Below are positions 8,860 through 62,697 of a DNA stretch of 64,000 nt, one piece after another. The translations under genes and the position numbers were made by a program. The DNA is from an uncultured Bacilli bacterium. GTDB lineage: Bacteria; Bacillota_I; Bacilli_A; RFN20; CAG-826. Within the stretch, counting starts at the first letter, position 1. Every line of letters starts with the position of its first letter. Below the pieces are notes generated by a model that was not told where the DNA came from, searched no databases, and saw only the letters and a list, made by a program, of their open reading frames with translations. The DNA is taken from contig CAKUXV010000001.1 of the NCBI GenBank assembly GCA_934700895.1, positions 269,289 through 333,288 of the forward strand. Reading direction: 5' to 3'.

Positions 8860-10602
8860 ATGTATTCCAATTCCCATTTGTCCGTTCTTCGCCAAGCCAT
8901 GAAGGAAAAAGGCATCAAGGCTTATTTGATGAAAACGGGCGACCCCCACAATTCGGAAGAGCCCGCTCCCTATTATTCGGCGGAACGTCGTTTCTTTTGC
9001 CCGTTTAGCGGCGATAACGCCTATGTGATCGTGACGGAAAAAGACGCGGTTTTGTTTAGCGATGGTCGCTTCATGTTATCGGCCAACGAGGAAATTAAGG
9101 GCACCCCCTATGCTTTTATCGAGCTTTATCGCCCTGGGAATCCTACTCCGGAAGAATATCTTCGCAAGAACGGTCTCTATCCGCTGGGCGTGGATTTTTC
9201 TTATCTTTCCCTCACTGATTTAAAAGAACTAAGAAAAGGGGGAGAAGTACAAGACGTTTCCTTCTTAAGTCTTATTGATGACCTCCCTTCCCTTTCTCAT
9301 GACCCCCTTTGGTCTTTTGATTCGCCCGCTTATCAAGACTATAACCACCTAGAGAAACTAGAAATCGTTCGGAGTGCCATGAAGGAAAAAGGCGTAGAAG
9401 CCCTTCTCATCACGACTTTGGACGACATCGCCTATTTGACCAACCTAAGGGGCAACGACCTCTTAAACACGCCTTTATTCTATTCCTACGCCTATTTGAC
9501 GCTTCATGAAGCCCATTTGTTCTTGGCTTCAGGGCGTTTGGAGCATCTAGAAGGCTATACCCTCCACGATTTAAGCGAAATCGCCCCTTTTGTTAAAGAA
9601 AGGGAAAACCTTTTGACTTGGGTGGATGAAAAGGAATGCAACGCTCGTTTGGCTTCATTGCTGCAAAATCCTTTTGACGCGGAAGTTCCTACCCGCTTAG
9701 AGAAGGCGGTCAAAGGACCCAAAGAAATCGAAAACATCATCTCCATCCAAGAAGAAGACGGGGTGGCCCTTTTGAAGTTCATCGATTTCCTCGATCGAGC
9801 AAAACCCGGCTTAACGGAATGGGAGGTTGTAGAAAAACTCCATGAATTCCGCGCGGAAGGGAAGCGTTTTCTCGACGAATCCTTCACCACGATTGCCGCG
9901 ATGGGCCCGAATGCTGCGATGATGCACTACGCCCCCACAGAGCAAATCTATGCCACCTGGGACGAAAATACGGTGGAATTGCTTTTAGATAGCGGAGGTC
10001 AGTATTTGGGAGGCACCACGGATACTACGAGAACCTTCTTGCTTGGCACCCCAAGCCCCGAATATATCCGCGATTACACCTTGACCCTTCGTTCGGTGAT
10101 CGCGCTTTCTGCCTGCGTTTTCCTCCAAGGGGCCAATGGCCAATGCATTGACATGATGGCAAGGGAAATCATGTGGAGGGAAGGGATGGACTATAAATGC
10201 GGAACCGGGCATGGCGTTGGCTATTTAAGCGTCGTCCACGAATCGCCCAACGGCTTCCGCTATCGTCCCGCCAAAGGCAAAAACGATGGAGCGAACATCG
10301 TTCCCGGCATGATCACGACCATCGAACCCGGCGTTTATAAGGCCAATAAGTACGGCATTCGCATCGAAAATAACCTTCTTTGCGTCCCCGCCTTCGTGAC
10401 TCCAGACGGCACATTCTACCGCTTCCAAACGATCACCTACGTTCCCATCGATACCAAAGCTTTGGATTTGACGTTATTAAGCGAAACGGATATCGCTTGG
10501 ATCAATGCCTATCATCAAGAGGTTTTTAAGCGCTTGTCGCCCAAGATAGAAGGGCGTCTGTTAGATGTTTTAAAAGAAAAGACGAAGCCCCTTTATCGAT
10601 AA
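8860..10602 (+). CDS. pepP: Xaa-Pro aminopeptidase (M24B; creatinase-like N-terminal domain plus M24 domain).
   Basis: GGAGGG ribosome-binding site. HGVGYLSVVHE motif and M24 metal-ligand pattern. About 580 aa. Confidence 0.85.
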   Translation: MYSNSHLSVLRQAMKEKGIKAYLMKTGDPHNSEEPAPYYSAERRFFCPFSGDNAYVIVTEKDAVLFSDGRFMLSANEEIKGTPYAFIELYRPGNPTPEEYLRKNGLYPLGVDFSYLSLTDLKELRKGGEVQDVSFLSLIDDLPSLSHDPLWSFDSPAYQDYNHLEKLEIVRSAMKEKGVEALLITTLDDIAYLTNLRGNDLLNTPLFYSYAYLTLHEAHLFLASGRLEHLEGYTLHDLSEIAPFVKERENLLTWVDEKECNARLASLLQNPFDAEVPTRLEKAVKGPKEIENIISIQEEDGVALLKFIDFLDRAKPGLTEWEVVEKLHEFRAEGKRFLDESFTTIAAMGPNAAMMHYAPTEQIYATWDENTVELLLDSGGQYLGGTTDTTRTFLLGTPSPEYIRDYTLTLRSVIALSACVFLQGANGQCIDMMAREIMWREGMDYKCGTGHGVGYLSVVHESPNGFRYRPAKGKNDGANIVPGMITTIEPGVYKANKYGIRIENNLLCVPAFVTPDGTFYRFQTITYVPIDTKALDLTLLSETDIAWINAYHQEVFKRLSPKIEGRLLDVLKEKTKPLYR

Positions 10603-10615
10603 GCTTCGCTCTCTT

Positions 10616-11173
10616 TTATTGTTTTAACGGCACGATTCGATGCGGCCACTCGTATCGAACCAGTCCGCAATTAGGAATCATATACGAGACGAATTCCTCG
10701 TTATTTAAGTCATGGAAATAGGTCTCAACCACCCGCGACATTCCTCCGTGAGCCACGATTAAGATATTTTTGTCTGGGCAGGTCTCTTCGAGTTCGTGGA
10801 GGAAGGAATAAACGCGGTAGGCCACATCCAAATACCCCTCTCCCCCGGGATAGCGGCAAAAGAAGTGCTGCCGTTGCTTTTTGTATTCTTCGTTATGACG
10901 GGACACCCCTTCGAATTGGCCGTAATATTCTTCGGCTAGCCGATCGTCGGTAAGAAGGAGAATCTTACGGTCTCCCCTTGCGATTTCCGCCGTTTCATAG
11001 GCCCGTTTTAACGGGGAAGAATAAATGACGTCCAAAGGAATGTTCTGGATTTTGATCCGAAGTTCTTCGGCCTCTTTTCGCCCCGTCTCGTTTAAGGGGA
11101 TGTCTTTCCTTCCCTGAATTTTGTAATCGAGGTTCCAGTCGGTTTGGCCGTGACGCGTGTAATAAATCGCCAT
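10616..11173 (-). CDS. Histidine phosphatase family protein (phosphoglycerate-mutase-like). The start is probably the internal ATG (MAIYYTRHG...); the upstream extension to 11293 would overlap the divergent neighbour.
   Basis: RHGQTDWN catalytic motif. HGG later in the sequence. Confidence 0.7.
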   Translation of the reverse strand: MAIYYTRHGQTDWNLDYKIQGRKDIPLNETGRKEAEELRIKIQNIPLDVIYSSPLKRAYETAEIARGDRKILLLTDDRLAEEYYGQFEGVSRHNEEYKKQRQHFFCRYPGGEGYLDVAYRVYSFLHELEETCPDKNILIVAHGGMSRVVETYFHDLNNEEFVSYMIPNCGLVRYEWPHRIVPLKQ

Positions 11174-11258
11174 GTCCGCAATCTTACCACAAAAGGAGCT
11201 CCCTCTATAAGGAAGGGAAGCGGAGGTGATATAATGCAGCCCGAAAGAAGGACGAACC

Positions 11259-11867
11259 ATGGATTGGAAGCTTATCGACGTTACCAAGGACACGAATCAT
11301 CGATTCCTCAATGAATACACCCTCCATTATGAGGTTTCTACGGGGAATGGAACTCGATCCTATGATTATTTCGTGGCTTCTAGAAACGAACCCGCTACGC
11401 TTCGCTCCATTACGCGCGATTATTCTCGCCCCGATGGGGTGGTGATGTGCCTTTATGAAATCGACCCAGCGACCCAAGAGGTTTCCGTTTTGTTCACCAA
11501 ACAATTCCGTCCTGCGTTAGGCGCCTATATGACTTCTTTCCCCGCAGGGCTGCTTGATCCCGAAGATCCCGATATGCTCGTTGCAGCTAAACGCGAGGCT
11601 AAAGAAGAAGCAGGGGTTGAAATCGATGACATAGAAATCCTTGCTCCGGCTTGCCCGACTTCCAGTGGGCTTTCCGATGAACTCGATGGTTTTATTTTGG
11701 CACGAATCGTGGGAAAAGAAGAAAAGAAGCTCGAGGATTTTGAGGATATTTCCACGCGCCTCGTCCCCTTGAAAGATGTCCCAGCGATGATGAAAGATCC
11801 CACCTATCATATCCCCCTTCCCGTCCGTCTTTGCCTCCATTACCTGTTAGAAAGATTTGCTCGATGA
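11259..11867 (+). CDS. NUDIX hydrolase (ADP-ribose pyrophosphatase-like).
   Basis: Nudix box GLLDPEDPDMLVAAKREAKEEAGV. Confidence 0.75.
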   Translation: MDWKLIDVTKDTNHRFLNEYTLHYEVSTGNGTRSYDYFVASRNEPATLRSITRDYSRPDGVVMCLYEIDPATQEVSVLFTKQFRPALGAYMTSFPAGLLDPEDPDMLVAAKREAKEEAGVEIDDIEILAPACPTSSGLSDELDGFILARIVGKEEKKLEDFEDISTRLVPLKDVPAMMKDPTYHIPLPVRLCLHYLLERFAR

Positions 11868-51279: not shown

Positions 51280-52860
51280 ATGAAGAATCCCACGTTTTTT
51301 GCGGCCCATTATGACGTTATCGTCATCGGCGGGGCTTTGGCCGGCATGTCCGCGGCCATGGATTTGGCCCGCCACGGCAACAAGGTTTTGATTTTGGAAC
51401 GTCATAACCTCCCAGGAGGCGTGGCGACTAGCTTTGTCCGAAGCGGCGTGGAAATGGAAGCCACTCTTCACGAAATGATGTCGATCGGGCCCAAAGAAGC
51501 CCCATTATTTATTCGGGAATACCTAGAAGAAAATGGCTTGGATTTGAACTGGCTCCGCGTGCCGGAAGCCTATCGACTGTCCGCACCCGCCGATTCCATC
51601 GATATCACACTTCATGCCGGAAAAGACGAAGATGGCATCTTTCTCTGCGCCAAGGAAATCGAAAAGCAATATCCAGGCGAAGGGAAGAAAGCCGATGCGC
51701 TTTTGAAACTGTGCGAAAAGGTTTATGAAAGCGCCCGTTATTTTAACGACCATTCGCTTAGCAAAATCCAAACGATGATGGAGCATGAAGGGCTAGCCAA
51801 GACGGCGGGGTATTCGGCGAAAGAAGTACTGGATTGCTTTCAAATCTCTACCCCCGTCCAAAAGATTTTATCCGCCTATTGGATTTATGTGGGCGGCCCG
51901 ATGTCGGATATGCCTTTTGCAATCTATGCTTTTCTTATGGGGGATTATATGGTGGGAGGTGGCTACGTTCTTCGCGGCTTTTCCCACGAACTTGCCTGCG
52001 CCATGGCGAAAAAATGCGAGGAGCTTGGCGTTCAAATCGAATACGGCCAGGAAGTGGAAAAGATTTTAATCCGCGACGAGAAACGAAAGGACAAACGTCC
52101 CTCCGTCTATGGAGTCCGTACAAAGAGGGGAGATGAAATCCACACTCGATACGTCGTTTCCGCCCCCTATCAGGAAACGGTTTATAAGAAAATGGCGGAA
52201 CCCAAAAGCCTGGTGCCCAAGGATGCGTTCCGCTTGGTCAATTCTAGAAAGATGAACGTATCGACGTTCTCTCTCGTTTTGCGTTTAGAAGGGAAACCCG
52301 AGGACTATAACATCCACGATTATTCCGTGTTTTCCTGCGACTCCCCCATGGATAGTGATCGCTTCTTTGAAGAAGGAGAACAACTTGGAAACTGGGACTA
52401 TTTGGCGACCATTTGCCTGAACTACGCGAATCCCGATGGGGTCCCGGAAGGAACCACGTCTCTCGCCATTACGGCCATGCCCCTCCCGGAAGCGTTTTTT
52501 AACGTCGACGCGGATTCTTACCGCAAGGTGAAGCGGGAAATCGCAAGGCAAATGATCGAGACGGTTTCACGGCGTATTGGCGCGGATATATTCGGCCATA
52601 TTTTGGATATTGTGATCGAAACCCCGATGAGCGTTTATCGTTACATGAAAGATTATCGAGGCGGGGTATATGGATATCGCCACAGCATGTCGGATTCCAT
52701 TGTTTCCCGTCAAGGAGTCTATGCCAAAGAACATTATATTCATGGCTTAACTTGGGGAGCCGCTCATGCCCTGACTGGAGACGGGATGGCCGTCAACATC
52801 AATAACGGCCGCATCGCCGCCAAAATGATTGAAACGTGGCAAAAGGAGGACGCCCAATGA
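51280..52860 (+). CDS. NAD(P)/FAD-dependent oxidoreductase (phytoene-desaturase/amine-oxidase-like fold).
   Basis: N-terminal DVIVIGGALAGMSAAMDLARHGNKVLILE. The ORF's upstream extension to 51109 overlaps potD and was rejected. Confidence 0.7.
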   Translation: MKNPTFFAAHYDVIVIGGALAGMSAAMDLARHGNKVLILERHNLPGGVATSFVRSGVEMEATLHEMMSIGPKEAPLFIREYLEENGLDLNWLRVPEAYRLSAPADSIDITLHAGKDEDGIFLCAKEIEKQYPGEGKKADALLKLCEKVYESARYFNDHSLSKIQTMMEHEGLAKTAGYSAKEVLDCFQISTPVQKILSAYWIYVGGPMSDMPFAIYAFLMGDYMVGGGYVLRGFSHELACAMAKKCEELGVQIEYGQEVEKILIRDEKRKDKRPSVYGVRTKRGDEIHTRYVVSAPYQETVYKKMAEPKSLVPKDAFRLVNSRKMNVSTFSLVLRLEGKPEDYNIHDYSVFSCDSPMDSDRFFEEGEQLGNWDYLATICLNYANPDGVPEGTTSLAITAMPLPEAFFNVDADSYRKVKREIARQMIETVSRRIGADIFGHILDIVIETPMSVYRYMKDYRGGVYGYRHSMSDSIVSRQGVYAKEHYIHGLTWGAAHALTGDGMAVNINNGRIAAKMIETWQKEDAQ

Positions 52861-54032
52861 AATTCAAAGGCCTTTGGAAAGACGTCACGGGCTTTTTCCG
52901 CGTCAATAAATTAAGAAAGAACGCGATTAAAAATGCGTCGGCTTCTGAAAAATATTTGGACCCCATCGCCGAAGTAGCGAACGAACTCCACCCCGAGTAT
53001 TTGGATTTGGTCGTGACAAAGATCGAAGAAGAACCGCACGCCAAAAAGATGACCTTCGAAAGGACGGACGGCAAGAAACTTCCCCCATTTGACGCGGGAC
53101 AGTATGTCTCTTTGGCCTTAAAAATTGGCGACACGTTAACTACTAGACCCTATTCCGTTTGCAGCGCCCCCTTTGAAGCGCGTTTGGAGGAGCACCCCCA
53201 TATTTCAATTTGCGTGGTAAGAAAAGAAGATGGCTTTGCTTCTAAATTTCTTTGCGATTCGGTTTCTATCGGCGACCATTTTTCCGCTACTTTCCCTCTT
53301 GGGTTTTTCTACTTTGAACCATTAAGAGATTGCAAAAAAGTCGTGGCTTTAGCGGGAGGAAGCGGCATCACCCCCTTCTTGTCCATGGCCAAAGAAATTC
53401 GTCATGGAACCTTGGAGATGGACTTAACGATTCTATATGGTTCTTCCACCCCGCAAATGCTTTTGAAGCGGGAACTGGAGGATTGCGTCTGCGGCTCCCT
53501 CCGCCTAGTCCCCGTTATTTCTAATGATTCCAATTTTGAAGGAGAAAAAGGATTTTTAGACCGCGAGAAGATTCGTCGTTATTCCCAAGGCGAAGTTTCC
53601 TATTTTGCCTGTGGCCCCCAAGCGATGTATGAATTCGTCGAACGGGAATTAAGGGCTTTAAATATTCCAACCAAGCGAATTCGGATGGAAACGTTCGGTT
53701 CTCCCAAAGACATCGCCAAAGAAGAAGGTTATCCCCAAGGCGAGGAGAAGAAGTCCTTTCGGCTAACTGTCTATCGAGGAATCCATAAAGACGAAATCCC
53801 CGCTAAAGCTAATGAGCCCATTTTGGTTGCTTTAGAAAGAGCGGGCATTCCTTCTAACAGCCATTGCCGCAGCGGCGAATGCGGATTTTGCCGTTGCGAA
53901 CTCCTTTCCGGCTCTGTTTTTGTTCCGAAAAAAGGAGATGGCAGACGTTATAGCGACAAGACTTTTGGCTACGTCCACGCCTGCTCTGCTTACCCCTTAA
54001 GCGATCTCGAAATCCGCATTATCATTAAGTAG
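52857..54032 (+). CDS. Ferredoxin-NAD(P) reductase-like protein with a C-terminal plant-type 2Fe-2S ferredoxin domain.
   Basis: FAD-binding RPYS motif. NAD-binding GGSGITP. C-terminal CRSGECGFCRC. ATGA overlap with the upstream gene. Confidence 0.7.
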   Translation: MKFKGLWKDVTGFFRVNKLRKNAIKNASASEKYLDPIAEVANELHPEYLDLVVTKIEEEPHAKKMTFERTDGKKLPPFDAGQYVSLALKIGDTLTTRPYSVCSAPFEARLEEHPHISICVVRKEDGFASKFLCDSVSIGDHFSATFPLGFFYFEPLRDCKKVVALAGGSGITPFLSMAKEIRHGTLEMDLTILYGSSTPQMLLKRELEDCVCGSLRLVPVISNDSNFEGEKGFLDREKIRRYSQGEVSYFACGPQAMYEFVERELRALNIPTKRIRMETFGSPKDIAKEEGYPQGEEKKSFRLTVYRGIHKDEIPAKANEPILVALERAGIPSNSHCRSGECGFCRCELLSGSVFVPKKGDGRRYSDKTFGYVHACSAYPLSDLEIRIIIK

Positions 54033-54122: not shown

Positions 54123-55442
54123 ATGATTGCAAAAACAAAAGAAATCAAAGACATCGGCGGCCTGACAGATGAAAGAGAAACGGTGGTTTTGCCTCCGCCT
54201 CCCTTCGTCTACCTTGCGTTGGAAAACGCGCGTTGCCCCAAGGCGGAATGCACCGTCAAAGAAGGCGACCACGTCTATCTCCATCAACAAGTTGGACTCC
54301 GTCATGGCCCCTCTTTCGAAGAACCCATCCATTCCACGGTAAGCGGAACGGTGGTCGGCTTCGAAAAACGCTATCACCGCGCGGGCAAGATGGTGAATTA
54401 CATCAAAGTCGAAAATGACTTTAAGGACGAGAAGGATCCTAGCGTCTCTCCTCGTACCATGGAGCAAATCAAGACTCTCTCCTTTGACGACGCGGTGGAA
54501 ATCTTCAAGAACCGCTGCCTCGTGGGGCTTGGAGGATCTTCCTTCCCGACGTATGTGAAACTTCAATACGCCAAGGGCAAAAAGATCGACATGATCCTCA
54601 TCAATGCGATTGAGTGCGAGCCCTCCATCTCGGCGGATTATCGCTTGTTGGATGAAAAAGCGGACGACGTCCTTCGCGGCGTCCTTTGCCTCCAAAATCT
54701 CTTCCACTGCGGCGATGCGCGCATCTGCATCAAGAAGAAGCACGGCGAACTGATCGCCAAGCTTCAGGAAAAGATTGCCAAGGATTATCCGGGAAGCGGC
54801 ATCAGCGTCGACCCGATGCGCAACTATTATCCCCAAGGCTGGGAAATTGCGATGATTAAAGAAGCCACCCATGGCAAAGTGATCATCCCGCCCGGAAAGA
54901 AGGGGCTACCCCCGGATTACGGCATTTTCAATGTGAATGCCATGACCTGCGCTGGGGTTTGGTATGCCCTTGGCGACGACGAACCCGTTTATGAACGCTA
55001 TGTCACCGTCGCGGGAGACGGCATCAATAAGCCCGTCAACCTCGAAGTCCGCGTTGGCACTCCGATCACCGATTTGATCCAAGCTGCCGGCGGATACAAA
55101 GACGAATCGCCGAAGGTTTTAATCCTTGGCGGACCGATGATGGGCGCTGCTTTGCCTAGCGATGATGCTATCGCTACCAAGACCGTGACCTCGATCATCG
55201 TCGAAAACGCCAAAGAAAAGGAAGCAAAACCCTGCATCCATTGCGGATCCTGCGTTTATAGCTGCCCGACTCATCTCCAACCGGTTCTCATCATGGAAGC
55301 CGTCAAGAGCATGAACCGTGACCGCATCAAAATGCTCAACCCGCTCAACTGCATCGAATGTGGACTTTGCTCCTATTCCTGCACGTCCGGCATCGCCGTC
55401 ACCGATTTTGTAAGGAGGGCAAAGATCATCGCAAAACTTTGA
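54123..55442 (+). CDS. rnfC: Rnf complex subunit C (NADH-binding, 2x[4Fe-4S]).
   Basis: CIHCGSCVYSCP and CIECGLCSYSC motifs. GLGGSSFPT. Confidence 0.85.
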   Translation: MIAKTKEIKDIGGLTDERETVVLPPPPFVYLALENARCPKAECTVKEGDHVYLHQQVGLRHGPSFEEPIHSTVSGTVVGFEKRYHRAGKMVNYIKVENDFKDEKDPSVSPRTMEQIKTLSFDDAVEIFKNRCLVGLGGSSFPTYVKLQYAKGKKIDMILINAIECEPSISADYRLLDEKADDVLRGVLCLQNLFHCGDARICIKKKHGELIAKLQEKIAKDYPGSGISVDPMRNYYPQGWEIAMIKEATHGKVIIPPGKKGLPPDYGIFNVNAMTCAGVWYALGDDEPVYERYVTVAGDGINKPVNLEVRVGTPITDLIQAAGGYKDESPKVLILGGPMMGAALPSDDAIATKTVTSIIVENAKEKEAKPCIHCGSCVYSCPTHLQPVLIMEAVKSMNRDRIKMLNPLNCIECGLCSYSCTSGIAVTDFVRRAKIIAKL

Positions 55443-55452
55443 TCGTTTCATT

Positions 55453-56535
55453 ATGGAATTTGTCAAACAATCTGCGCCCCACATCAAAAGAAAGGACAAT
55501 TTGATGTGGATGCTGCTCAACGTGATCATCGCGTTGGCCCCCACGGCCATTTGGGCCTGGGTCGTCTCCCCGCTTGCTGCGCTTCGCATCTTCCCTCTTG
55601 CGATTGCCACTTGCCTCCTTTGCGAATTCCTCTTCGTCGTTATCACGAAGAAGGATCCCAAAGCCTTTAAGATCGAGAATATCCTCTCTTCGATCATTAC
55701 CGGCATGATTTATGGCCTTTGCCTCCCCACCGAAATGAGCTGGGGCAACGGCATGGGCTATGTCATCGTCATCTTCGGTGCCGCCATCGGCATCGTTCTT
55801 GGCAAACTCGTCTTCGGCGGGCTTGGCAACAACATCTTCAACCCCGCGGCCCTCGGCATGGTCGTTGTGCGCTTGTTCTGGGGCGGATTCTTATCCTCTT
55901 CCACCACGGGCACCGGCGGATTCATCGATGGGTCCATCGTGGCGGGCGGAACCTCGCTTTCTTATGGAGCGACCTATTCCAACATTGCTAACGCGGACTT
56001 CCTCGGCATGTTCTTAGGACGTGCTCCAGGCGCCTTAGGAGAAGGCTTCCACGTCGCAATCCTCGTGGGTCTTGCCTATCTTCTCATCACCCGCACCATC
56101 GATTGGCGCGTCTTTGTTTCCTATTTTGGAACCTTCGCCGTGTTGATGCTTGTGGCGGGAATTGTGGTCCAAACCCAACTCCCCACGGTCAATTGCGGAG
56201 CTTTCTTGCTCTATCAATTGCTCTCTGGCGGCATCCTCTTCGGCGCGGTCTTCATGATCACCGACCCGGTAACCGGACCGATGGGCGGGCCGAACCGCGT
56301 CCTATTCGGCATCTTCGGCGGGTTCATGGCCGTCCTCATCCGTATCGTGTTGAAGACGGAAGGGGTCGCCTATTCGATCCTGTTCGCCAACATGATTGCC
56401 CCGGTTCTCGATTATCCTTCTTGGTCCTCTTCGACCTGGAAGAAGCACCATTTCATCTCCGCCGGTATCATCGGCGTGTTTGGAATCTTGCTCGTTGTGC
56501 TCGTCTTACTCTTTAAGGAAGGAGCCATCGCATGA
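55453..56535 (+). CDS. rnfD: Rnf complex subunit D.
   Basis: Polytopic NqrB/RnfD-like protein in the canonical operon position. Confidence 0.85.
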   Translation: MEFVKQSAPHIKRKDNLMWMLLNVIIALAPTAIWAWVVSPLAALRIFPLAIATCLLCEFLFVVITKKDPKAFKIENILSSIITGMIYGLCLPTEMSWGNGMGYVIVIFGAAIGIVLGKLVFGGLGNNIFNPAALGMVVVRLFWGGFLSSSTTGTGGFIDGSIVAGGTSLSYGATYSNIANADFLGMFLGRAPGALGEGFHVAILVGLAYLLITRTIDWRVFVSYFGTFAVLMLVAGIVVQTQLPTVNCGAFLLYQLLSGGILFGAVFMITDPVTGPMGGPNRVLFGIFGGFMAVLIRIVLKTEGVAYSILFANMIAPVLDYPSWSSSTWKKHHFISAGIIGVFGILLVVLVLLFKEGAIA

Positions 56536-58040
56536 ACAAATACGTTAAATCTCCATTAGTTCTCGGCTGCATCTGCGTATGCTCTGCAGGACTCATCGGC
56601 GGGCTTCACCTTGTGGCAAAAAAATACGCGGAAGCGCATAAATCCACCGAAGCCCCGAAAGAAATTCAATCTTTAAAAGCGGGCGCCACCTTTGTAGAAG
56701 TTGCCGATTTCAAACCGACTTCCTTCACGGGGGATGCCTCCAAAGTTACCATCGAAAGCGTCTATGAGATGCAAGAAGGCGGAAAGCGTACGGGCTATGC
56801 CTATTCCGTCAATTGCGGCAAGCCGGCTAAAACCGACGTCACCTTCACGGTCGCTTTTGAAGGAGAAGTGAGCGAATCCACCGTCGCCCAACTCAAACCG
56901 ATCGCCATCAACGTCACTTCCGGCGGCGACGCAGGATATGACGCCAACACGGTTTCCTATGCTCAAGGAATCGTCGATGGCTCCAAGCAATTCAACGATG
57001 CTAACGACATCGTAAGTGGCGGAACCAAATCCCAAAAATTCCTTCGCGACGGCTTAACCGCTGCCCGTACGGATTATTTGGCCCGTTATAACGGTACTGC
57101 TCCGACTCCACAACCGACCGATGAAACCCTCGTTTACTTCCAAAAGATGTATCCGACGTTACAAAGCTATTCGCAAGATGAGGACTTCTCGCCCCTCAGC
57201 GTTTCTAGCGATCATAACGGTAAAGCCAAGATCGAGAAGCGTTATCGCGCAGAAGTCGATGGCAAGGTTGTCTTCTTCTACGAAGGCAAAGGAACCATCC
57301 AAGTCTCCGATTATGGCGAAAACAACACGGCTTCTGTCGACCTCTTCGTCGCCTTCGACGCGGAAGTCACCGATTCCAACTTGAAACAAGTCGCCCCGTC
57401 GAAATACACGATTGTTTCCTGCGACTTCTCTTATTCGCAATGGGAAGGCTATATGGAAGAAATCATCGCTGGCAGCAAAACCATTAATTCCAGCTCGGAC
57501 ATTTCCACTGGTGCCACACGTTCTTGCTTGCTGCTGCAAAGAATGATGATTAAGATGCGCAGCGATTATCACACGACTCGTCTCGCCGAAATCAAAGCCG
57601 GCGTCGGCGGAGCCGTTTCGAAAATCTTCTCCGCGGATGCCACTTACGAAGAAGACGACGCGTTTGCCGTCGTTGAGACGGAAGACTATTCCATTTCGAA
57701 GCTTTACACGGTTGCCTTAAGCGAAACCGAAACCGCGAAGCTCTATCTTGGAACCGCCCAAGCCGCGATTGAAGCGGATGGCACCATCTCCAAGATCACG
57801 CTCTACGTCGGATTCTCGGGAACCGCGGAATCGGAAGCAAATGTCCACATTGCTGGGTATTCCGAAGTTTCCTCCAATGGTTTCGACCAATGGAAAGGCT
57901 TTATGGATGGGCTATCCGATGGCTCGAAGTCCCTTGATAATGACGGGGACATCGCCACCGGCGCCACCCATTCCACCCGTGCCGTCCGCGACATGGTCAA
58001 AGGCATGAGAAGCCATTACTTCTCGTCCTTATCCAAATGA
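56532..58040 (+). CDS. rnfG: Rnf complex subunit G, expanded to 502 aa with three tandem FMN-binding repeats.
   Basis: N-terminal anchor. Repeats end in DIVSGGTKS, DISTGATRS and DIATGATHS, which resemble the RnfG/NqrC flavinylation motif D-x-SGAT-x-T/S. Confidence 0.75.
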   Translation: MNKYVKSPLVLGCICVCSAGLIGGLHLVAKKYAEAHKSTEAPKEIQSLKAGATFVEVADFKPTSFTGDASKVTIESVYEMQEGGKRTGYAYSVNCGKPAKTDVTFTVAFEGEVSESTVAQLKPIAINVTSGGDAGYDANTVSYAQGIVDGSKQFNDANDIVSGGTKSQKFLRDGLTAARTDYLARYNGTAPTPQPTDETLVYFQKMYPTLQSYSQDEDFSPLSVSSDHNGKAKIEKRYRAEVDGKVVFFYEGKGTIQVSDYGENNTASVDLFVAFDAEVTDSNLKQVAPSKYTIVSCDFSYSQWEGYMEEIIAGSKTINSSSDISTGATRSCLLLQRMMIKMRSDYHTTRLAEIKAGVGGAVSKIFSADATYEEDDAFAVVETEDYSISKLYTVALSETETAKLYLGTAQAAIEADGTISKITLYVGFSGTAESEANVHIAGYSEVSSNGFDQWKGFMDGLSDGSKSLDNDGDIATGATHSTRAVRDMVKGMRSHYFSSLSK

Positions 58041-58055
58041 AAGGAGTGATGCAAA

Positions 58056-58829
58056 ATGGCTAAAGAAAATACTTCCAAAAGATCGCGCATCTTCTTGGAC
58101 CCCTTGCTGAAGGCCAACCCCTTGTTCGTCATGGTCCTCGGCACCTGTCCTGCTCTTGCGGTTACGACTTCGTTTGAATCCGCGATTGGCATGGGCCTCC
58201 TCTTCACTTTCGTCGTTTTCTTCTCCAACCTCTTGATTTCCGCCTTACGGAAAGTCATCCCGGAAGAAGTAGAAACCCCAGCTTACATCGTAATCATCGC
58301 GACCTTCGTCACGATTGTTAAGATCCTCACCTCGACGTTCTTGCCTGAACTCTATAACAGCCTTGGCGTCTTCGTTTCCTTGCTCGTTGTCAACTGCATC
58401 GTTCTCGGCCGTGCCGAGGCCTTCGCCAACAAAAACAGCGTTGTGGATTCGATGCTCGACGGCCTTGGAAATGGCCTTGGCTATACTTGGGCCATCGCCG
58501 TCATCGCGCTCTTCCGCGAAGTCGTCGGCGCCGGTACTCTCACCTTTGGCAAAACCTTTACCTTCATTCCCCAAATCACCATCCCCATTTTGGGCGGATT
58601 CAAGGGAACGAATTTCTCCCTTGCCATCCCGCTATTTAAATCCTCCGCCGGTGGTTTCTTGGTGCTAGGATTCGCCCTTGCCATCCTTGCCGCGGTCAAT
58701 AACCACAAGAAGCACAAAGCCCAAGAGGCGTTAAAAGCCCAAAAGGCCAAAGAAGCGGAAGCGCGCAAAGCGGCCCTCGCCGCCAAAGCCGCCGCTAAGC
58801 CCGCTACGGTTGCAGAAGGAGGTAAATAA
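58056..58829 (+). CDS. rnfE: Rnf complex subunit E, with a roughly 45-aa Ala/Lys-rich C-terminal tail.
   Basis: MVLGTCPALAVTT...VVNCIVLGRAEAFA. Tail AQEALKAQKAKEAEARKAALAAKAAAKPA. Confidence 0.8.
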   Translation: MAKENTSKRSRIFLDPLLKANPLFVMVLGTCPALAVTTSFESAIGMGLLFTFVVFFSNLLISALRKVIPEEVETPAYIVIIATFVTIVKILTSTFLPELYNSLGVFVSLLVVNCIVLGRAEAFANKNSVVDSMLDGLGNGLGYTWAIAVIALFREVVGAGTLTFGKTFTFIPQITIPILGGFKGTNFSLAIPLFKSSAGGFLVLGFALAILAAVNNHKKHKAQEALKAQKAKEAEARKAALAAKAAAKPATVAEGGK

Positions 58830-58831
58830 GC

Positions 58832-59434
58832 ATGCCTTACATCGTTTCATTCTTGCTTGCCATCGTTTCTTACACGGTGATCGATAACGTCATTCTCTCG
58901 CGTTATTTTGGTATCTGCTCGTTTGTTGGCGTTGGCAACAAGGTTAAATCCGCCGTCGGCATGGGAGCCGCTGTCACCTTCGTCACGATGATGGCCGCCC
59001 TTGTTTGCTGGCCGATCTTCAATTACATCCTCGTCCCCGCTGGCATGGAATACATGGAGACCATCGTCTTCATCCTTGTCATCGCTTCCTTGGTCCAGAT
59101 GGTTGGTTATTTCATCAAGAAAACCTCGCCCTCTCTTTACAAGACCCTTGGTATCTATCTTCCCTTGATCACGACTAACTGCGCCGTTCTCGGCGTCGTT
59201 GAGACGAACATGACCTATGACTTCGGTCGTTCCATGGCTAACGCCCTTGGCACTTCCTTGGGCTTCGTCCTCGTCATCTTCCTCTTCGCCTGCATCCGCG
59301 TGAAACTTGAAGGCAACGACCTCCCCAAAGCGTTTAAAGGCGTTCCTATCGCCTTAATCGTCGCGGGCATCATGGCCGTTATCTTCATGGGCCTCGGCGG
59401 CATGGTTGACCTTGGCTCTTGGGGCATTGCCTAA
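58832..59434 (+). CDS. rnfA: Rnf complex subunit A.
   Basis: RnfA/NqrE-like, six TM helices, TNCAVLGV. Confidence 0.85.
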   Translation: MPYIVSFLLAIVSYTVIDNVILSRYFGICSFVGVGNKVKSAVGMGAAVTFVTMMAALVCWPIFNYILVPAGMEYMETIVFILVIASLVQMVGYFIKKTSPSLYKTLGIYLPLITTNCAVLGVVETNMTYDFGRSMANALGTSLGFVLVIFLFACIRVKLEGNDLPKAFKGVPIALIVAGIMAVIFMGLGGMVDLGSWGIA

Positions 59435-59682
59435 TGAGCAAAGGCGGGTATATCGCCCTCGCCGTCGTCCTCGTTGTTGCTCTTGTCGCCATCTTCACCG
59501 TCAGCTTCGTCCTTTACGTCAAAACTCCGCCCCCCAAGGGCTGTGAGCGGCAAAAAGGCGGAGCACAATGTGAGAATTGCGAGCAATCGAGCTGCAAATT
59601 CTACGAGGCCGCCATGGCGAAAGCCGCTAAAAAAGAAGAAGAAAAGAAAGCGGAAGAAGAAACTTCCGAGAAAGGAAATTGA
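59434..59682 (+). CDS. Small membrane protein with a C-x8-C-x2-C-x4-C motif inside the rnf operon, followed by an acidic/basic tail.
   Basis: Start overlaps the rnfA stop (TAATGA). One TM helix, then CERQKGGAQCENCEQSSC. Confidence 0.45.
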   Translation: MSKGGYIALAVVLVVALVAIFTVSFVLYVKTPPPKGCERQKGGAQCENCEQSSCKFYEAAMAKAAKKEEEKKAEEETSEKGN

Positions 59683-60002
59683 ATATGGATATTTTGTGGG
59701 CCGTCCTCTTGATGGCGGGATTAGCCGTCATCCTCGCTCTGCTTATCGTCCTTTTCTCCAATATCTTCCACGTGGAAGAAGACCCCCGCATCGCGGCGGT
59801 CGAAAAGATGCTCCCCAATTACAATTGCGGCGCCTGCGGATATGCGGGCTGCCACGATTTGGCGGAAGCTCTTGTTAACGGAGAAGTCAAAAAGGTCAGC
59901 CAGTGCAAAGCGGGCAAGAAGGACAAGAACTTCGACCCGATTGCCGAATATTTGAATTCGACGCCGGGACCCGACGGAAACACCCTTCACGTTAATCCTT
60001 AA
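59679..60002 (+). CDS. rnfB: Truncated RnfB: N-terminal TM helix plus the first Cys4 cluster only, with no ferredoxin domains.
   Basis: LPNYNCGACGYAGCHDLAEALVNGEVKKVSQC is the canonical RnfB N-terminal motif. The ORF ends after 107 aa. Confidence 0.6.
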   Translation: MNMDILWAVLLMAGLAVILALLIVLFSNIFHVEEDPRIAAVEKMLPNYNCGACGYAGCHDLAEALVNGEVKKVSQCKAGKKDKNFDPIAEYLNSTPGPDGNTLHVNP

Positions 60003-60017
60003 GAAGATGCCACTTCG

Positions 60018-61103
60018 GTGGCATTTTCTTTTACTCTTTTCTATAATTCCTGCGTGAAAAATTCTCGTTGTTTGTATTTAACTTCCACCCTCCTATTAAC
60101 GGGCCTACTCCCCTTGACGGGCTGCTCTACCAATCCCAGCGATTTCTCCTCGGAATCCGAAGATTTTTATGGGGCGAGTGGTTACGCTTTTCATAGTTTC
60201 TTTTCCTTTTCTTATAATTCCAACCAAGGCTCGATCGATGACCAAATCACTTCCTTCTTGGATAAGATGGATGATTTAGCGGACCCCTATAACGCCGTTC
60301 AAGGAAAATCGAACCTGTATACGATCAATAACACCCATCTCCCCGTGAAGGTAGATGAGGATTTATTCGACCTTGTTAAAACTTCCCTCGAACTCGAAAA
60401 AAAGACGGAGGGCTATTTTAACCCCCTAATCGGGGCGATTTCCCTAGAATGGAAGGAAATCCTTCAATCCCAAGAAGAAGTGCTAGAAACGGATATAAAG
60501 GCCTTAGAAGGCCGTTTGCCGGCGTTGCTCGAGCAAATGAATGCCTCGGAACTTGTTTTAAACGAAGAAGAACATTCCATTCAACGTGTGGGGGATGCCA
60601 AAATCGACCTCGGCGGATTGGTGAAAGGTTATTGCGTAGAACGCGTCCAGCAGATGGTTTTAGCCTGCGGGGCCACCCGTTATCTCATTAACGGGGGTAC
60701 GTCTTCGTTATCCCTTGGCAAAACCAAAAGTGGCGAGCCCTATCGCGTAAGCCTTCGCGATTCTAAAACCCCCAAGGAAAATTATTTCTCTCTCCATGAC
60801 GTGGACACCTCGACTTCCGGGATTTATGAGCAGATGATCCGCGTGGGCGAAACGACTTATTCCCACGTGATTAATCCCAAGACCGGCATGGCGGTTTCTC
60901 CTTTTTCGATGGCTTTGCTTGTCGGAGATGATTCCGCTCTTCTCGATGCTTTCTCCACTTCCTGCATGATCGCAGGAAAAGAAAAGGCCAAAGAATGGAG
61001 TCAAACCTATTCTTTCTCCTATTCTTTATATGAAGATGACGGGGGATATACAAAGCTGGTCGAAGAATCACCTGAACTAACCAAGGTGAGAATCTCCGCT
61101 TAA
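60018..61103 (+). CDS. apbE: FAD:protein FMN transferase (ApbE family) lipoprotein.
   Basis: Lipobox LTGC. ApbE-like core (GGLVKGY..., PKTGMAV). Immediately downstream of the rnf genes. Confidence 0.8.
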   Translation: MAFSFTLFYNSCVKNSRCLYLTSTLLLTGLLPLTGCSTNPSDFSSESEDFYGASGYAFHSFFSFSYNSNQGSIDDQITSFLDKMDDLADPYNAVQGKSNLYTINNTHLPVKVDEDLFDLVKTSLELEKKTEGYFNPLIGAISLEWKEILQSQEEVLETDIKALEGRLPALLEQMNASELVLNEEEHSIQRVGDAKIDLGGLVKGYCVERVQQMVLACGATRYLINGGTSSLSLGKTKSGEPYRVSLRDSKTPKENYFSLHDVDTSTSGIYEQMIRVGETTYSHVINPKTGMAVSPFSMALLVGDDSALLDAFSTSCMIAGKEKAKEWSQTYSFSYSLYEDDGGYTKLVEESPELTKVRISA

Positions 61104-61173: not shown

Positions 61174-62697
61174 TTACTTCGCGGCTTTGTTGTAGGCGTT
61201 GACGAGAAGGTCGACGTAGGAAACATAGCCAGAAGCAGGTTTGGAGTTGAGGTCGGTCCAGGTGGCGCCGATCTTAACGTCTTCATCATCCGAGTTCTTG
61301 ACAACCCATTGATTGTCTTGGCCACGGACAGAGGCTTGCATGGCTTCCGGTCCATATTGGACGAAGGCGCCGACGGTCTTGTCGCGGTTGGTCTTCCAAT
61401 CGAATTTGGTTCCGCCATAGCCGTTCTCTTCTTTGTTGAGTTTGGCATGGCCAACGTTCTGGTTGCCCGTGGAGAGCACAAGGGTGACGCCATCGTTCAT
61501 GACGGCATTGTAGTAAGCTTCGCAGACTTCTTCTTTGGAGAAATCAGCACCTTCGTATTTGAAGGATTTGTTCGCGGCATCATAAGCACCGGTGAGGGTG
61601 TAGTCGCCGAATTTGACGGTCTTGTAATAGACGTTGTTGACTTCGGCGTTGTGGCTAATGACGATCGCTTCGATATAGTCGGAAGCGGCAAGAGTGGCTT
61701 TTTCTTCATCGGAAACGGTGAGGGAGGTCGGCAATTCGACTTCGTGGAGGTTCGCACCGAGGAGGGTGATTTCATTGGTGTGAGTGGTGTAATTCATCGA
61801 GGAGACGAGTTCGACATCGGCCGCGCCAACGTAGGATCCACCGTGGACGAGGGCAAAGGCTTTGCCGGTCTTGTAAGCATCAACAAAGTTGACGTTGACG
61901 GTGACATCGTTCTTCGGCATGACGAAGGAACCGGTGGTCTTCATCGTGTTGTTGATGGAGGCTTCGAGGGTGTTGTTGACGAGGGTGAGGCCTTCGCTGG
62001 CGGCGCTGTATTTGTAGACGCCTTCGTGGAAGTTCTCAAGATCTTCACCTTGGATGAGCCAGGAAGCGAGGGATCCTTCGAGGATTTCGACTTCGTGGGT
62101 GCCCTTGGCGGAGAAGTAGGCATCGATGTTGGTGCCAGTCTTCGCGTTGACCCATTCTTCGGTGTCCATATCGAATTTCTTGACTTCAGTGGTCGTGTTC
62201 GTGACATTCAAGGTAACCTTGTGGGTCTTGCCACCCGTGACGGCTTTGGAATAAGCCTTGATGGTCGGGGCAGTCTTGGTCATGTTGAAGCTGACGTATT
62301 TGACGCCTTCCATGTTGAGTTCACCGCCATAGCAATTGAACTTCATGCCAGCAGCGCCAACTTGGGCTTCGTACTTCGTGCCATCGATGTCGATGTAGTC
62401 GAGTTCGTTCGCGCCAGAGAAGGACGGGACGAGGTAGACTTTCTCATTCACCTTCGGAGTGTAGATGTAAGCTCCGGAATAGGTGTCGGTGAAGGTCGAG
62501 ACGCCAAGGAGGTTCGGCATCGTGTAGTCGACGATGAGACCGCCATAGACGGAGGCACCAATATCGACGCCGGTGTTCGAATCGGCGGTGTCTTTACTAG
62601 CCGTGTCTTTGCTGTTGTCGGAAGAGGTTCCGCCACCGCAAGAAGCAAGCAACGCCGCCGAAGCGAGGACGAGAACCAATTTTTTGGATTGAATCAT
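61174..62697 (-). CDS. Thr/Val/Asn-rich lipoprotein of unknown function.
   Basis: Lipobox LLASCGGG with a Ser/Asp tether. The plus-strand ORF 61309-62703 is its antisense shadow. Confidence 0.55.
   Translation of the reverse strand: MIQSKKLVLVLASAALLASCGGGTSSDNSKDTASKDTADSNTGVDIGASVYGGLIVDYTMPNLLGVSTFTDTYSGAYIYTPKVNEKVYLVPSFSGANELDYIDIDGTKYEAQVGAAGMKFNCYGGELNMEGVKYVSFNMTKTAPTIKAYSKAVTGGKTHKVTLNVTNTTTEVKKFDMDTEEWVNAKTGTNIDAYFSAKGTHEVEILEGSLASWLIQGEDLENFHEGVYKYSAASEGLTLVNNTLEASINNTMKTTGSFVMPKNDVTVNVNFVDAYKTGKAFALVHGGSYVGAADVELVSSMNYTTHTNEITLLGANLHEVELPTSLTVSDEEKATLAASDYIEAIVISHNAEVNNVYYKTVKFGDYTLTGAYDAANKSFKYEGADFSKEEVCEAYYNAVMNDGVTLVLSTGNQNVGHAKLNKEENGYGGTKFDWKTNRDKTVGAFVQYGPEAMQASVRGQDNQWVVKNSDDEDVKIGATWTDLNSKPASGYVSYVDLLVNAYNKAAK

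Follow-up and report, generated by a model that had tools for sequence, protein, structure and literature searches.

An RnfG subunit with three predicted FMN_bind-type domains in a variant Rnf operon of uncultured gut Bacilli

Results

Layout of the rnfG gene and its product

We analysed a 64-kb stretch of DNA (the window in what follows; 64,000 nucleotides, positions 269,289 to 333,288 of contig CAKUXV010000001.1, assembly GCA_934700895.1) from an uncultured Bacilli bacterium, which carries a tightly packed operon of co-directional genes for the respiratory complex Rnf and for ApbE, a transferase of flavin mononucleotide (FMN). The product of its rnfG gene is the G subunit of a variant Rnf complex, and the host lineage, which bears the label 'Mollicutes', is related to Faecalibacillus-like Erysipelotrichales. 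The gene (56532–58040; coordinates are those of the window and lie on the plus strand unless stated otherwise) sits between rnfD and rnfE and forms an intact open reading frame (ORF) of 502 amino acids (aa), in which an N-terminal membrane anchor is followed by three tandem domains of the RnfG/FMN_bind type. We regard the presence of three homologous FMN_bind-type domains in this one RnfG as almost certain.

The transmembrane anchor (aa 8–30, PLVLGCICVCSAGLIGGLHLVAK; 56553–56621) is the sole hydrophobic segment of the protein. In a Kyte-Doolittle profile with 19-aa windows, every window above 1.6 begins at aa 4–11, and the AlphaFold2 model has a helix here at aa 3–35. The anchor sequence is strongly conserved among RnfG homologues, and all three motifs described below lie C-terminal to this single helix. 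Domain 1 (D1, aa 40–190; 56649–57101) is the orthologue of the single RnfG domain of relatives and carries motif 1, DIVSGGTKS (aa 159–167; 57006–57032), with the predicted FMN-bearing Thr165 (57024–57026). It is followed by a Pro/Thr/Gly-rich, presumably flexible linker (NGTAPTPQPTD, aa 187–197; 57090–57122) that holds the minimum of the predicted local distance difference test (pLDDT) in the model, with values below 50 at residues 193–195; homologues retain its Gly/Pro-rich character. Domain 2 (D2, aa 198–350; 57123–57581), an added FMN_bind-type domain and the most variable of the three, carries motif 2, DISTGATRS (aa 323–331; 57498–57524), with the predicted FMN-bearing Thr329 (57516–57518). 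From this residue, DSSP assigns to the model a long continuous helix of 37 residues (aa 329–365; 57516–57626) that joins D2 to D3, with a pLDDT of 82–93 in 10-residue blocks across aa 331–370. Domain 3 (D3, aa 351–502; 57582–58037), also an addition of the FMN_bind type and paralogous to D2, carries motif 3, DIATGATHS (aa 473–481; 57948–57974), with the predicted FMN-bearing Thr479 (57966–57968).

The original prediction for this gene, made from the sequence alone, described three collinear repeats that each close in a flavinylation motif, and we located all three motifs in the 502-aa translation, together with the beta-strand blocks and the W/Y-x-G...GSK elements that it had listed. The flavinylation consensus is D-x-x-[S/T]-G-A-[S/T] (PMC12052999). 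Motifs 2 and 3 (DISTGAT and DIATGAT) match it exactly, while motif 1 (DIVSGGT) deviates at position -1, with Gly for Ala. When all ORFs of 100 aa or more were scanned in the six frames of the window, the strict pattern D-x-x-[ST]-G-A-[ST] occurs twice, both times in RnfG, and a relaxed form of the motif occurs three times among ORFs of at least 200 aa, again always in RnfG.

Homology of the three repeats

Pairwise blastp related D1 to D2 (E=1e-13, 31% identity over 131 aa) and D2 to D3 (E=3e-14, 26% identity over 145 aa), and D1 to D3 over just 42 aa around the motif (E=4e-7, 33% identity). When family profiles were aligned with hhalign, D1 and D2 were paired at 98.3% probability (E 1.7e-14), D1 and D3 at 97.4% (E 1.3e-11) and D2 and D3 at 100% (E 1.8e-42). 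DNA self-comparison of rnfG revealed no repeat at the nucleotide level. The similarity of the RnfG repeats is well above chance, and these comparisons indicate that they are an ancient triplication.

Counting the domains with the Pfam FMN_bind model (PF04205), as had been proposed with the original prediction, was less straightforward. The whole protein gave one sub-threshold match (18.9 bits against a cutoff of 22, aa 411–490), and D3 was the sole domain to pass when the domains were searched in isolation (23.7 bits, same cutoff). Across the family, isolated D1 was matched in one of nine members (E 0.0026) and isolated D2 in none of nine. TIGR01947, the RnfG family model, scored 20.1 bits on the protein, below its curated cutoff of 102. 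The single-domain RnfGs of the same clade are likewise missed by Pfam FMN_bind, so that the divergence belongs to the whole RnfG subfamily and not just to the added domains; we assign the protein to RnfG by its synteny, fold and profile links. The threefold Pfam count was therefore not obtained, but neither are the repeats beyond the single match unrelated in profile search, since all three are connected at the profile level.

We next compared each domain with a canonical reference, an alignment of the Pfam-positive FMN_bind domains from proteins P0038, P0039, P0047 and P0052. By hhalign, D2 (92.7%, E 4e-7, 123 columns) and D3 (94.6%, E 7e-8) aligned to this reference, D1 reached 39% (E 3e-4), and reversed controls stayed at 0.1–0.2% (0.2% for D2). 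In each of the three domains, the motif Thr was aligned to the Thr of the canonical SGAT. The D1 profile also matched the RnfG chain 7zc6_G of the PDB (E ~0.01), with T165 aligned to the Thr of its ITGAT; D1 is tied to RnfG by this match, and to D2 and D3 by the profile alignments at 97–98%. Profiles of D2 and D3 found no match among PDB sequences, and phmmer with the whole protein against the same sequences returned noise alone (cohesin domains, E ~0.2). Each of the three domains is thus linked either to canonical FMN_bind or to RnfG, with its motif Thr placed on a Thr known to bear FMN.

The AlphaFold2 model of the whole protein (pLDDT 81.3) contains three units with an identical order of strands and helices. 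Searched with Foldseek against the PDB, the whole chain gave mostly spurious matches to elongated proteins and one meaningful match, to RnfG 9eri_G (probability 0.99). The model also matched RnfG, NqrC and FMN_bind structures, in an output that does not specify the matched domain. The assignment of D2 rests on its profile links.

Conservation and stepwise gain of domains

A search of 5.8 billion proteins yielded 12 homologues of 484–537 aa, down to 33% identity. G163, T165 and S167 of D1, G327 and T329 of D2, and T479 and S481 of D3 are invariant in all 12, and G477 of D3 is kept in 11. One of these homologues, P0003 (537 aa), has a 30-aa tandem duplication within D3, in which ETAKLYLGTAQAAIEADGTTSKITLYVGFS is repeated (alignment columns ~440–470); it comes from a single 2.3-kb contig, and this may be either a genuine micro-duplication or an error of assembly.

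When 1.84 billion cluster representatives were searched exhaustively with a profile hidden Markov model (HMM), no more than 46 proteins matched at E<=1e-3. Besides three-domain forms, these include two-domain forms (P0016, 384 aa; P0017, 357 aa) and one-domain forms of ~200 aa (P0018–20 and P0022), and one-, two- and three-domain relatives alike have as many G-[AGS]-T motifs as domains. The extra domain of the two-domain forms scores 121 and 107 bits as D2, and 71 and 73 bits as D3. Because this domain scores as D2, and because D2 and D3 are very close to each other, the order of gain is D1, D1+D2, D1+D2+D3, in which D2 and D3 were added stepwise to an ordinary RnfG, D3 as a copy of D2. Several relatives of 170–200 aa (P0018, P0019, P0035, P0036, P0041, P0048, P0049, P0051 and P0053) seem to make up a subfamily of short RnfG-like proteins with an N-terminal anchor, most of which have a D-[IV]-x-C-G-A-T or x-G-G-T site and no Pfam FMN_bind match at E<=0.01. 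Censuses based on Pfam probably undercount flavinylated domains and proteins.

For gene context we retrieved 13 related loci, 11 from genomes and two from contigs reached by protein lookup. The sources of the 11 genome loci are metagenome-assembled genomes (MAGs) from the faeces of humans and horses, assigned to uncultured gut 'Bacilli' or 'Mollicutes', and one assembly labelled Faecalibacillus sp. The length comparison across relatives that the original prediction had called for separated three forms: RnfG has 199 aa in loci L009 and L010, 357 aa in L012 and ~485–512 aa elsewhere. The three-domain architecture recurs with an intact frame in at least nine independent MAGs or contigs from different studies. 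In tblastn comparisons, D1 is ~51–53% identical to the 199-aa single-domain RnfGs of L009 and L010 (aa 2–198 and 2–187), and it is the most conserved domain, with 94–97% identity among close relatives and 42–60% among distant ones. All three domains are under purifying selection, with ratios of non-synonymous to synonymous divergence (dN/dS) of 0.03–0.30, and of 0.08–0.30 for D2 alone.

Two apparent allele types of domain 2

The three loci closest to the window (L001–L003; compared at 10001–11521) revealed a strong dimorphism in D2. Between the window and L001 on one side and L002 and L003 on the other, D2 is 65–68% identical, against 97–99% for RnfC, RnfD, RnfE and RnfA; in the same comparison D1 is 94–97% and D3 90–93% identical. 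D2 differs between the allele types with a dN of 0.25–0.27 and a dS of 0.87–1.5 (dN/dS 0.17–0.30), and dS elsewhere is 0.15–0.53 in D1 and D3 and 0.19–0.26 in the flanking rnf genes (window versus L003). We rejected positive selection as the cause of this hypervariability, since dS is raised as well and dN/dS stays below 0.3. Raised dN and dS together with a low dN/dS suggest recombination between old D2 alleles, and the pattern points to two old allele types that are exchanged by recombination under purifying selection. Such a pattern is typical of surface-exposed proteins and argues that D2 is functional. The sequence TGATRS is retained in both types.

A variant Rnf operon

The operon begins with rnfC (54123–55442), which encodes the subunit for reduced nicotinamide adenine dinucleotide (NADH) and FMN with two [4Fe-4S] clusters (TIGR01945, 316.7 bits); its Pfam matches (Complex1_51K, RnfC_N, SLBB and Fer4) show that RnfC retains its NADH/FMN and Fe-S domains. 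It is followed by rnfD (55453–56535; PF03116, E 1.8e-67) and, after rnfG, by rnfE (58056–58829; PF02508, E 3.4e-57; NF009070, 225 bits) and rnfA (58832–59434; TIGR01943, 222 bits). From their sequences, RnfA and RnfE appear to have retained the paired Cys that a membrane [2Fe-2S] cluster calls for. Then come a gene for a membrane mini-protein of 82 aa that has four Cys and a tail rich in Lys and Glu (59434–59682; no Pfam match), a short rnfB (59679–60002; PF04060, E 1.1e-12) and apbE for a lipoprotein FMN transferase (60018–61103; PF02424, E 1.6e-44). The gene order C-D-G-E-A-(small)-B is found in the window and in 13 of 13 related loci.

The operon had been described as a standard rnfCDGEAB cluster, which it is not. 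A 2025 review of RNF and NQR describes RnfB as having three parts: a transmembrane helix, a domain that is small and flexible and holds one cluster, and, at the C-terminus, a domain of two to seven [4Fe-4S] clusters that takes electrons from ferredoxin (PMC12174285). The RnfB of the window has 107 aa, a transmembrane helix and a small [4Fe-4S] domain (Cys at 50, 53, 58 and 76); it aligns only to positions 4–92 of RnfB models that are 190–293 positions long, and the C-terminal ferredoxin-accepting domain is absent from it. A length of 105–108 aa is kept across related loci regardless of the number of RnfG domains, and a literature search on truncated RnfB in Erysipelotrichaceae gave nothing relevant. 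The second departure is the mini-protein between rnfA and rnfB, present at the same position in 13 of 13 related loci. It has one transmembrane helix and Cys at 37, 46, 49 and 54 (C-x8-C-x2-C-x4-C), and may be an extra, unrecognised Rnf subunit. Its relatives of ~80 aa (for example L009 11916–12164, L012 8422–8673 and L013 5354–5590) share the pattern YVKTPxPKGCER...C-x2-C-x4-C-KFY, in which C-x2-C-x4-C is spaced much like the Fe-S motif in the N-terminal domain of RnfB. Since the same RnfB and mini-protein occur in loci with one, two and three RnfG domains, both features predate the expansion of RnfG and are independent of it.

The flavin transferase that flavinylation of RnfG would require is encoded in the operon as a lipoprotein, four genes downstream of rnfG and not just behind it. 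The true start of apbE is probably the GTG at 60054, which gives the signal peptide MKNSRCLYLTSTLLLTGLLPLTGC with the lipobox LTGC. The gene follows rnfB in every related locus that reaches that far (the L004 contig ends before). A strong terminator-like hairpin with a 13-bp stem and a T-run lies at 60001–60030 (plus strand), just past the rnfB stop and overlapping the first possible apbE start, and transcription of apbE may be partly uncoupled from rnfCDGEA-x-B. An Rfam scan of the window gave no match, and so no FMN riboswitch or rRNA.

The flavinylation site of RnfD, SIVAGGTSL (aa 161–169; 55933–55959), has G-G-T like D1 of RnfG, and the RnfD of the single-domain relative L009 reads SITTGATAL at the same place. 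G-G-T is also found at the site of the single-domain RnfGs of the clade. Taken together with the site in RnfD, this suggests that Gly at -1 is presumably accepted by the cognate ApbE.

Genes around the operon

A 507-aa lipoprotein gene (61174–62697, minus strand; lipobox LLASCGGG) is convergent with apbE. In the three-domain loci L005–L008, the region downstream of the operon contains homologues of 41–46% identity, and none was found within 10 kb in the single-domain loci L009–L011. This linkage may be plain clade synteny. Directly upstream of rnfC, a gene for a 398-aa ferredoxin reductase (52836–54032, plus strand) combines FAD_binding_6, NAD_binding_1 and a C-terminal 2Fe-2S domain, which are the domains of NqrF in a different order, with no transmembrane helix. 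We rejected this FNR-like gene as a part of the system because it is absent at the equivalent position in L001–L003 and in all other loci.

A gene with a NusG_II domain (PF07009) and a gene for a membrane protein with a PF07456 ('Hpre_diP_synt_I') domain follow apbE in most related operons (within L005–L013, e.g. L009 13572–14590), and are found neither in the whole window nor in L001–L003. We take PF07456-type proteins to include FmnA-like components of energy-coupling factor (ECF) transporters in flavin trafficking. If this is right, it is unclear where ApbE of the window strain would obtain extracytoplasmic flavin adenine dinucleotide (FAD). Neither ndh2 nor eetAB nor dmk was seen beside the operon.

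Discussion

A possible side path for electrons

In Rnf and Nqr complexes, the G or C subunit carries one covalent FMN and swings between the [2Fe-2S] cluster of the A/E subunits and the FMN of the D/B subunit (PMC12174285). We lean, if only slightly, towards a model in which the three domains of the window RnfG are all flavinylated and form a side path to or from an extracytoplasmic partner. RnfG would be held in the membrane by its one N-terminal helix and would present three alpha/beta FMN domains on the outer face, where ApbE is predicted to join FMN to Thr165, Thr329 and Thr479 through a phosphoester bond. ApbE has been shown experimentally to flavinylate proteins with multiple FMN_bind domains (PMC10339131). 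D1 would keep the normal role of an electron shuttle between the [2Fe-2S] cluster of RnfA/E and the FMN of RnfD; as the most conserved domain and the orthologue of single-domain RnfG, it is the one most likely to do so. D2 and D3 would form a semi-rigid arm with two flavins, connected to D1 by a flexible Pro/Thr-rich tether and to each other by the long modelled helix, and this relay could branch electrons off the Rnf loop to or from the partner. Candidate partners are O2, soluble flavins or quinones, metals, or a surface reductase. Reduced SaFMN3, a three-FMN protein, reduces O2 directly (PMC10339131), which makes O2 and soluble oxidants plausible acceptors for a gut anaerobe.

Several observations weigh against this model. 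At the predicted attachment site D1 has G-G-T instead of G-A-T. Replacement of Ala by Val at a flavinylation motif left ~50% of flavinylation (PMC12052999). Pfam FMN_bind misses D1 and D2, and when a confident model of D2 by itself (AlphaFold2, pLDDT 92.7) was searched against the PDB, Foldseek found nothing significant, RnfG and NqrC included. The predicted template modelling score (pTM) of the whole-protein model is 0.51, which leaves the geometry between the domains uncertain. Finally, we found no candidate extracytoplasmic acceptor or other ApbE substrate in the window; the conserved 507-aa lipoprotein encoded beside apbE lacks Pfam domains, CxxCH haem motifs and flavinylation motifs alike.

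If D2 and D3 carry flavins, they could also work with no external partner, as an electron buffer or a regulator of the RnfG shuttle that stores electrons or gates the swing of D1 between RnfA/E and RnfD. We consider this unlikely, although it would explain why neither the window nor the conserved neighbourhood yielded a partner gene, and agrees with what is known of RnfG and NqrC as a moving switch module (PMC12174285) and of SaFMN3, whose flavins have no directionality and a single potential (PMC10339131). Buffering or gating would not obviously need two further domains, each long conserved separately, and the flexible D1–D2 tether and the outward D2–D3 helix of the model would fit reach over gating; both are weak evidence. 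The failure of Pfam and of Foldseek to recognise D2 could instead mean that D2 and D3 are degenerate, flavin-free copies with a non-redox role (adhesion, scaffold or shield) and that FMN sits on D1 alone. The dimorphism of D2 between near-identical strains, often seen in exposed surface proteins, would suit such a role. We nevertheless judge it improbable: the G-x-T core of D2 and the Thr of D3 are invariant, and the Gly of D3 is kept in 11 of 12 homologues, even at 24–40% domain identity; D2 and D3 of the window match the published flavinylation consensus exactly; and both allele types of D2 retain its motif, with the Thr of D2 and D3 placed by hhalign on that of canonical SGAT. That the extra length of RnfG stems from an assembly duplication or a frameshift fusion of adjacent genes has a negligible chance of being true. 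The domains are 26–31% identical where they align well and show no self-similarity in DNA, and the same 480–540-aa architecture recurs, with its frame intact, in the independent assemblies described above, which excludes an assembly duplication.

Comparison with known multi-flavin proteins

We know of no multi-FMN RnfG that has been characterised by experiment. Multi-flavinylated proteins are regarded as what multi-haem cytochromes are among haem proteins, their flavin counterpart, and PplA, from the flavin-based extracellular electron transfer system of Listeria, is one with two flavinylated domains. PplA shares with the window RnfG that it is a surface-exposed FMN_bind-type protein of a monoderm Firmicute, is flavinylated by an ApbE-like enzyme, FmnB, and passes electrons outward (Light et al. 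2018, cited in PMC8238504). It is, however, a separate lipoprotein fed by Ndh2, quinone and EetA/B, whereas the flavin domains described here are fused to RnfG and would be fed by the Rnf core.

A multi-FMN RnfG is not unprecedented, as Meheust et al. (2021) found 2081 multi-FMN_bind proteins in a bioinformatic survey, reported RNF clusters with multi-flavinylated RnfGs and proposed for these an extra path to extracytosolic acceptors (PMC8238504), the function that we favour here too. The window RnfG shares with this class a gene in the RnfG position of an rnf cluster, more than one FMN-binding domain with its motif, and the association with ApbE. In contrast to that class, it repeats a whole globular domain of ~150 aa and not the FMN_bind core of ~80 aa, in copies that are 26–31% identical. 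Their survey counted Pfam FMN_bind matches at E<=0.001, at which the window RnfG family would score zero or one domain, so that our protein belongs to the multi-FMN class by homology and motifs and not by the Pfam count of that paper. The available part of its supplementary text carries no trace of the lineage names of the window RnfG (PMC8238504).

With canonical RnfG and NqrC (7zc6_G, 8ahx_G and 9eri_G; 4xhf and 7xk3_C) the window protein shares the N-terminal transmembrane helix, an alpha/beta FMN domain with a Thr in a loop of the [S/T]-G-A-T type followed by a long C-terminal helix, and the order rnfD-rnfG-rnfE; D1 matches them in sequence and probably in fold. Canonical proteins have 187–251 aa, one domain and one FMN, compared with 502 aa, three domains and a G-G-T in D1 here. 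Proteins with three and four FMNs were characterised by Tong et al. (2023; PMC10339131), and Huang et al. (2024) presented beads-on-a-string models with three FMN-bind domains. The former, SaFMN3 and CbFMN4 (PDB 8p2a and 8p2b), are soluble, secreted and not subunits of Rnf; their domains of ~85 aa are >80% identical and have one potential of -184 mV (PMC10339131). By comparison, the domains of the window RnfG are old, divergent and individually conserved, and D2 and D3 are predicted to be joined by a rigid helix. The differences between the window RnfG and the known multi-FMN class, to which the truncated RnfB of its complex adds one more, are ones of degree.

Implications for Rnf in gut Bacilli

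A bolder and rather doubtful proposal is that the Rnf of this clade, having lost the polyferredoxin domain of RnfB and gained a four-Cys mini-subunit, became an outward electron conduit in the three-domain lineages. NADH (via RnfC and RnfD) or a small cytoplasmic donor would then supply electrons that pass from D1 through D2 to D3, over three non-equivalent and individually tuned covalent flavins, to an extracellular acceptor such as O2 or, at the gut mucosa, oxidants from host or diet. If true, flavin extracellular electron transfer would here take a form based on Rnf and different from Ndh2/EetAB/PplA, and the series of one-, two- and three-domain forms would record the stepwise evolution of a flavin 'wire'.

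Faecalibacillus includes cultured isolates, and the one-domain form was found in the assembly labelled as this genus. Related gut bacteria that have this operon with one, two or three RnfG domains make a clean natural comparison possible. The age of the added domains, their divergence from each other and their individual conservation hint at distinct redox tuning and not at simple multiplication, and a truncated RnfB together with a multi-domain RnfG makes one ask what reaction this variant of Rnf carries out in gut Bacilli with reduced genomes.

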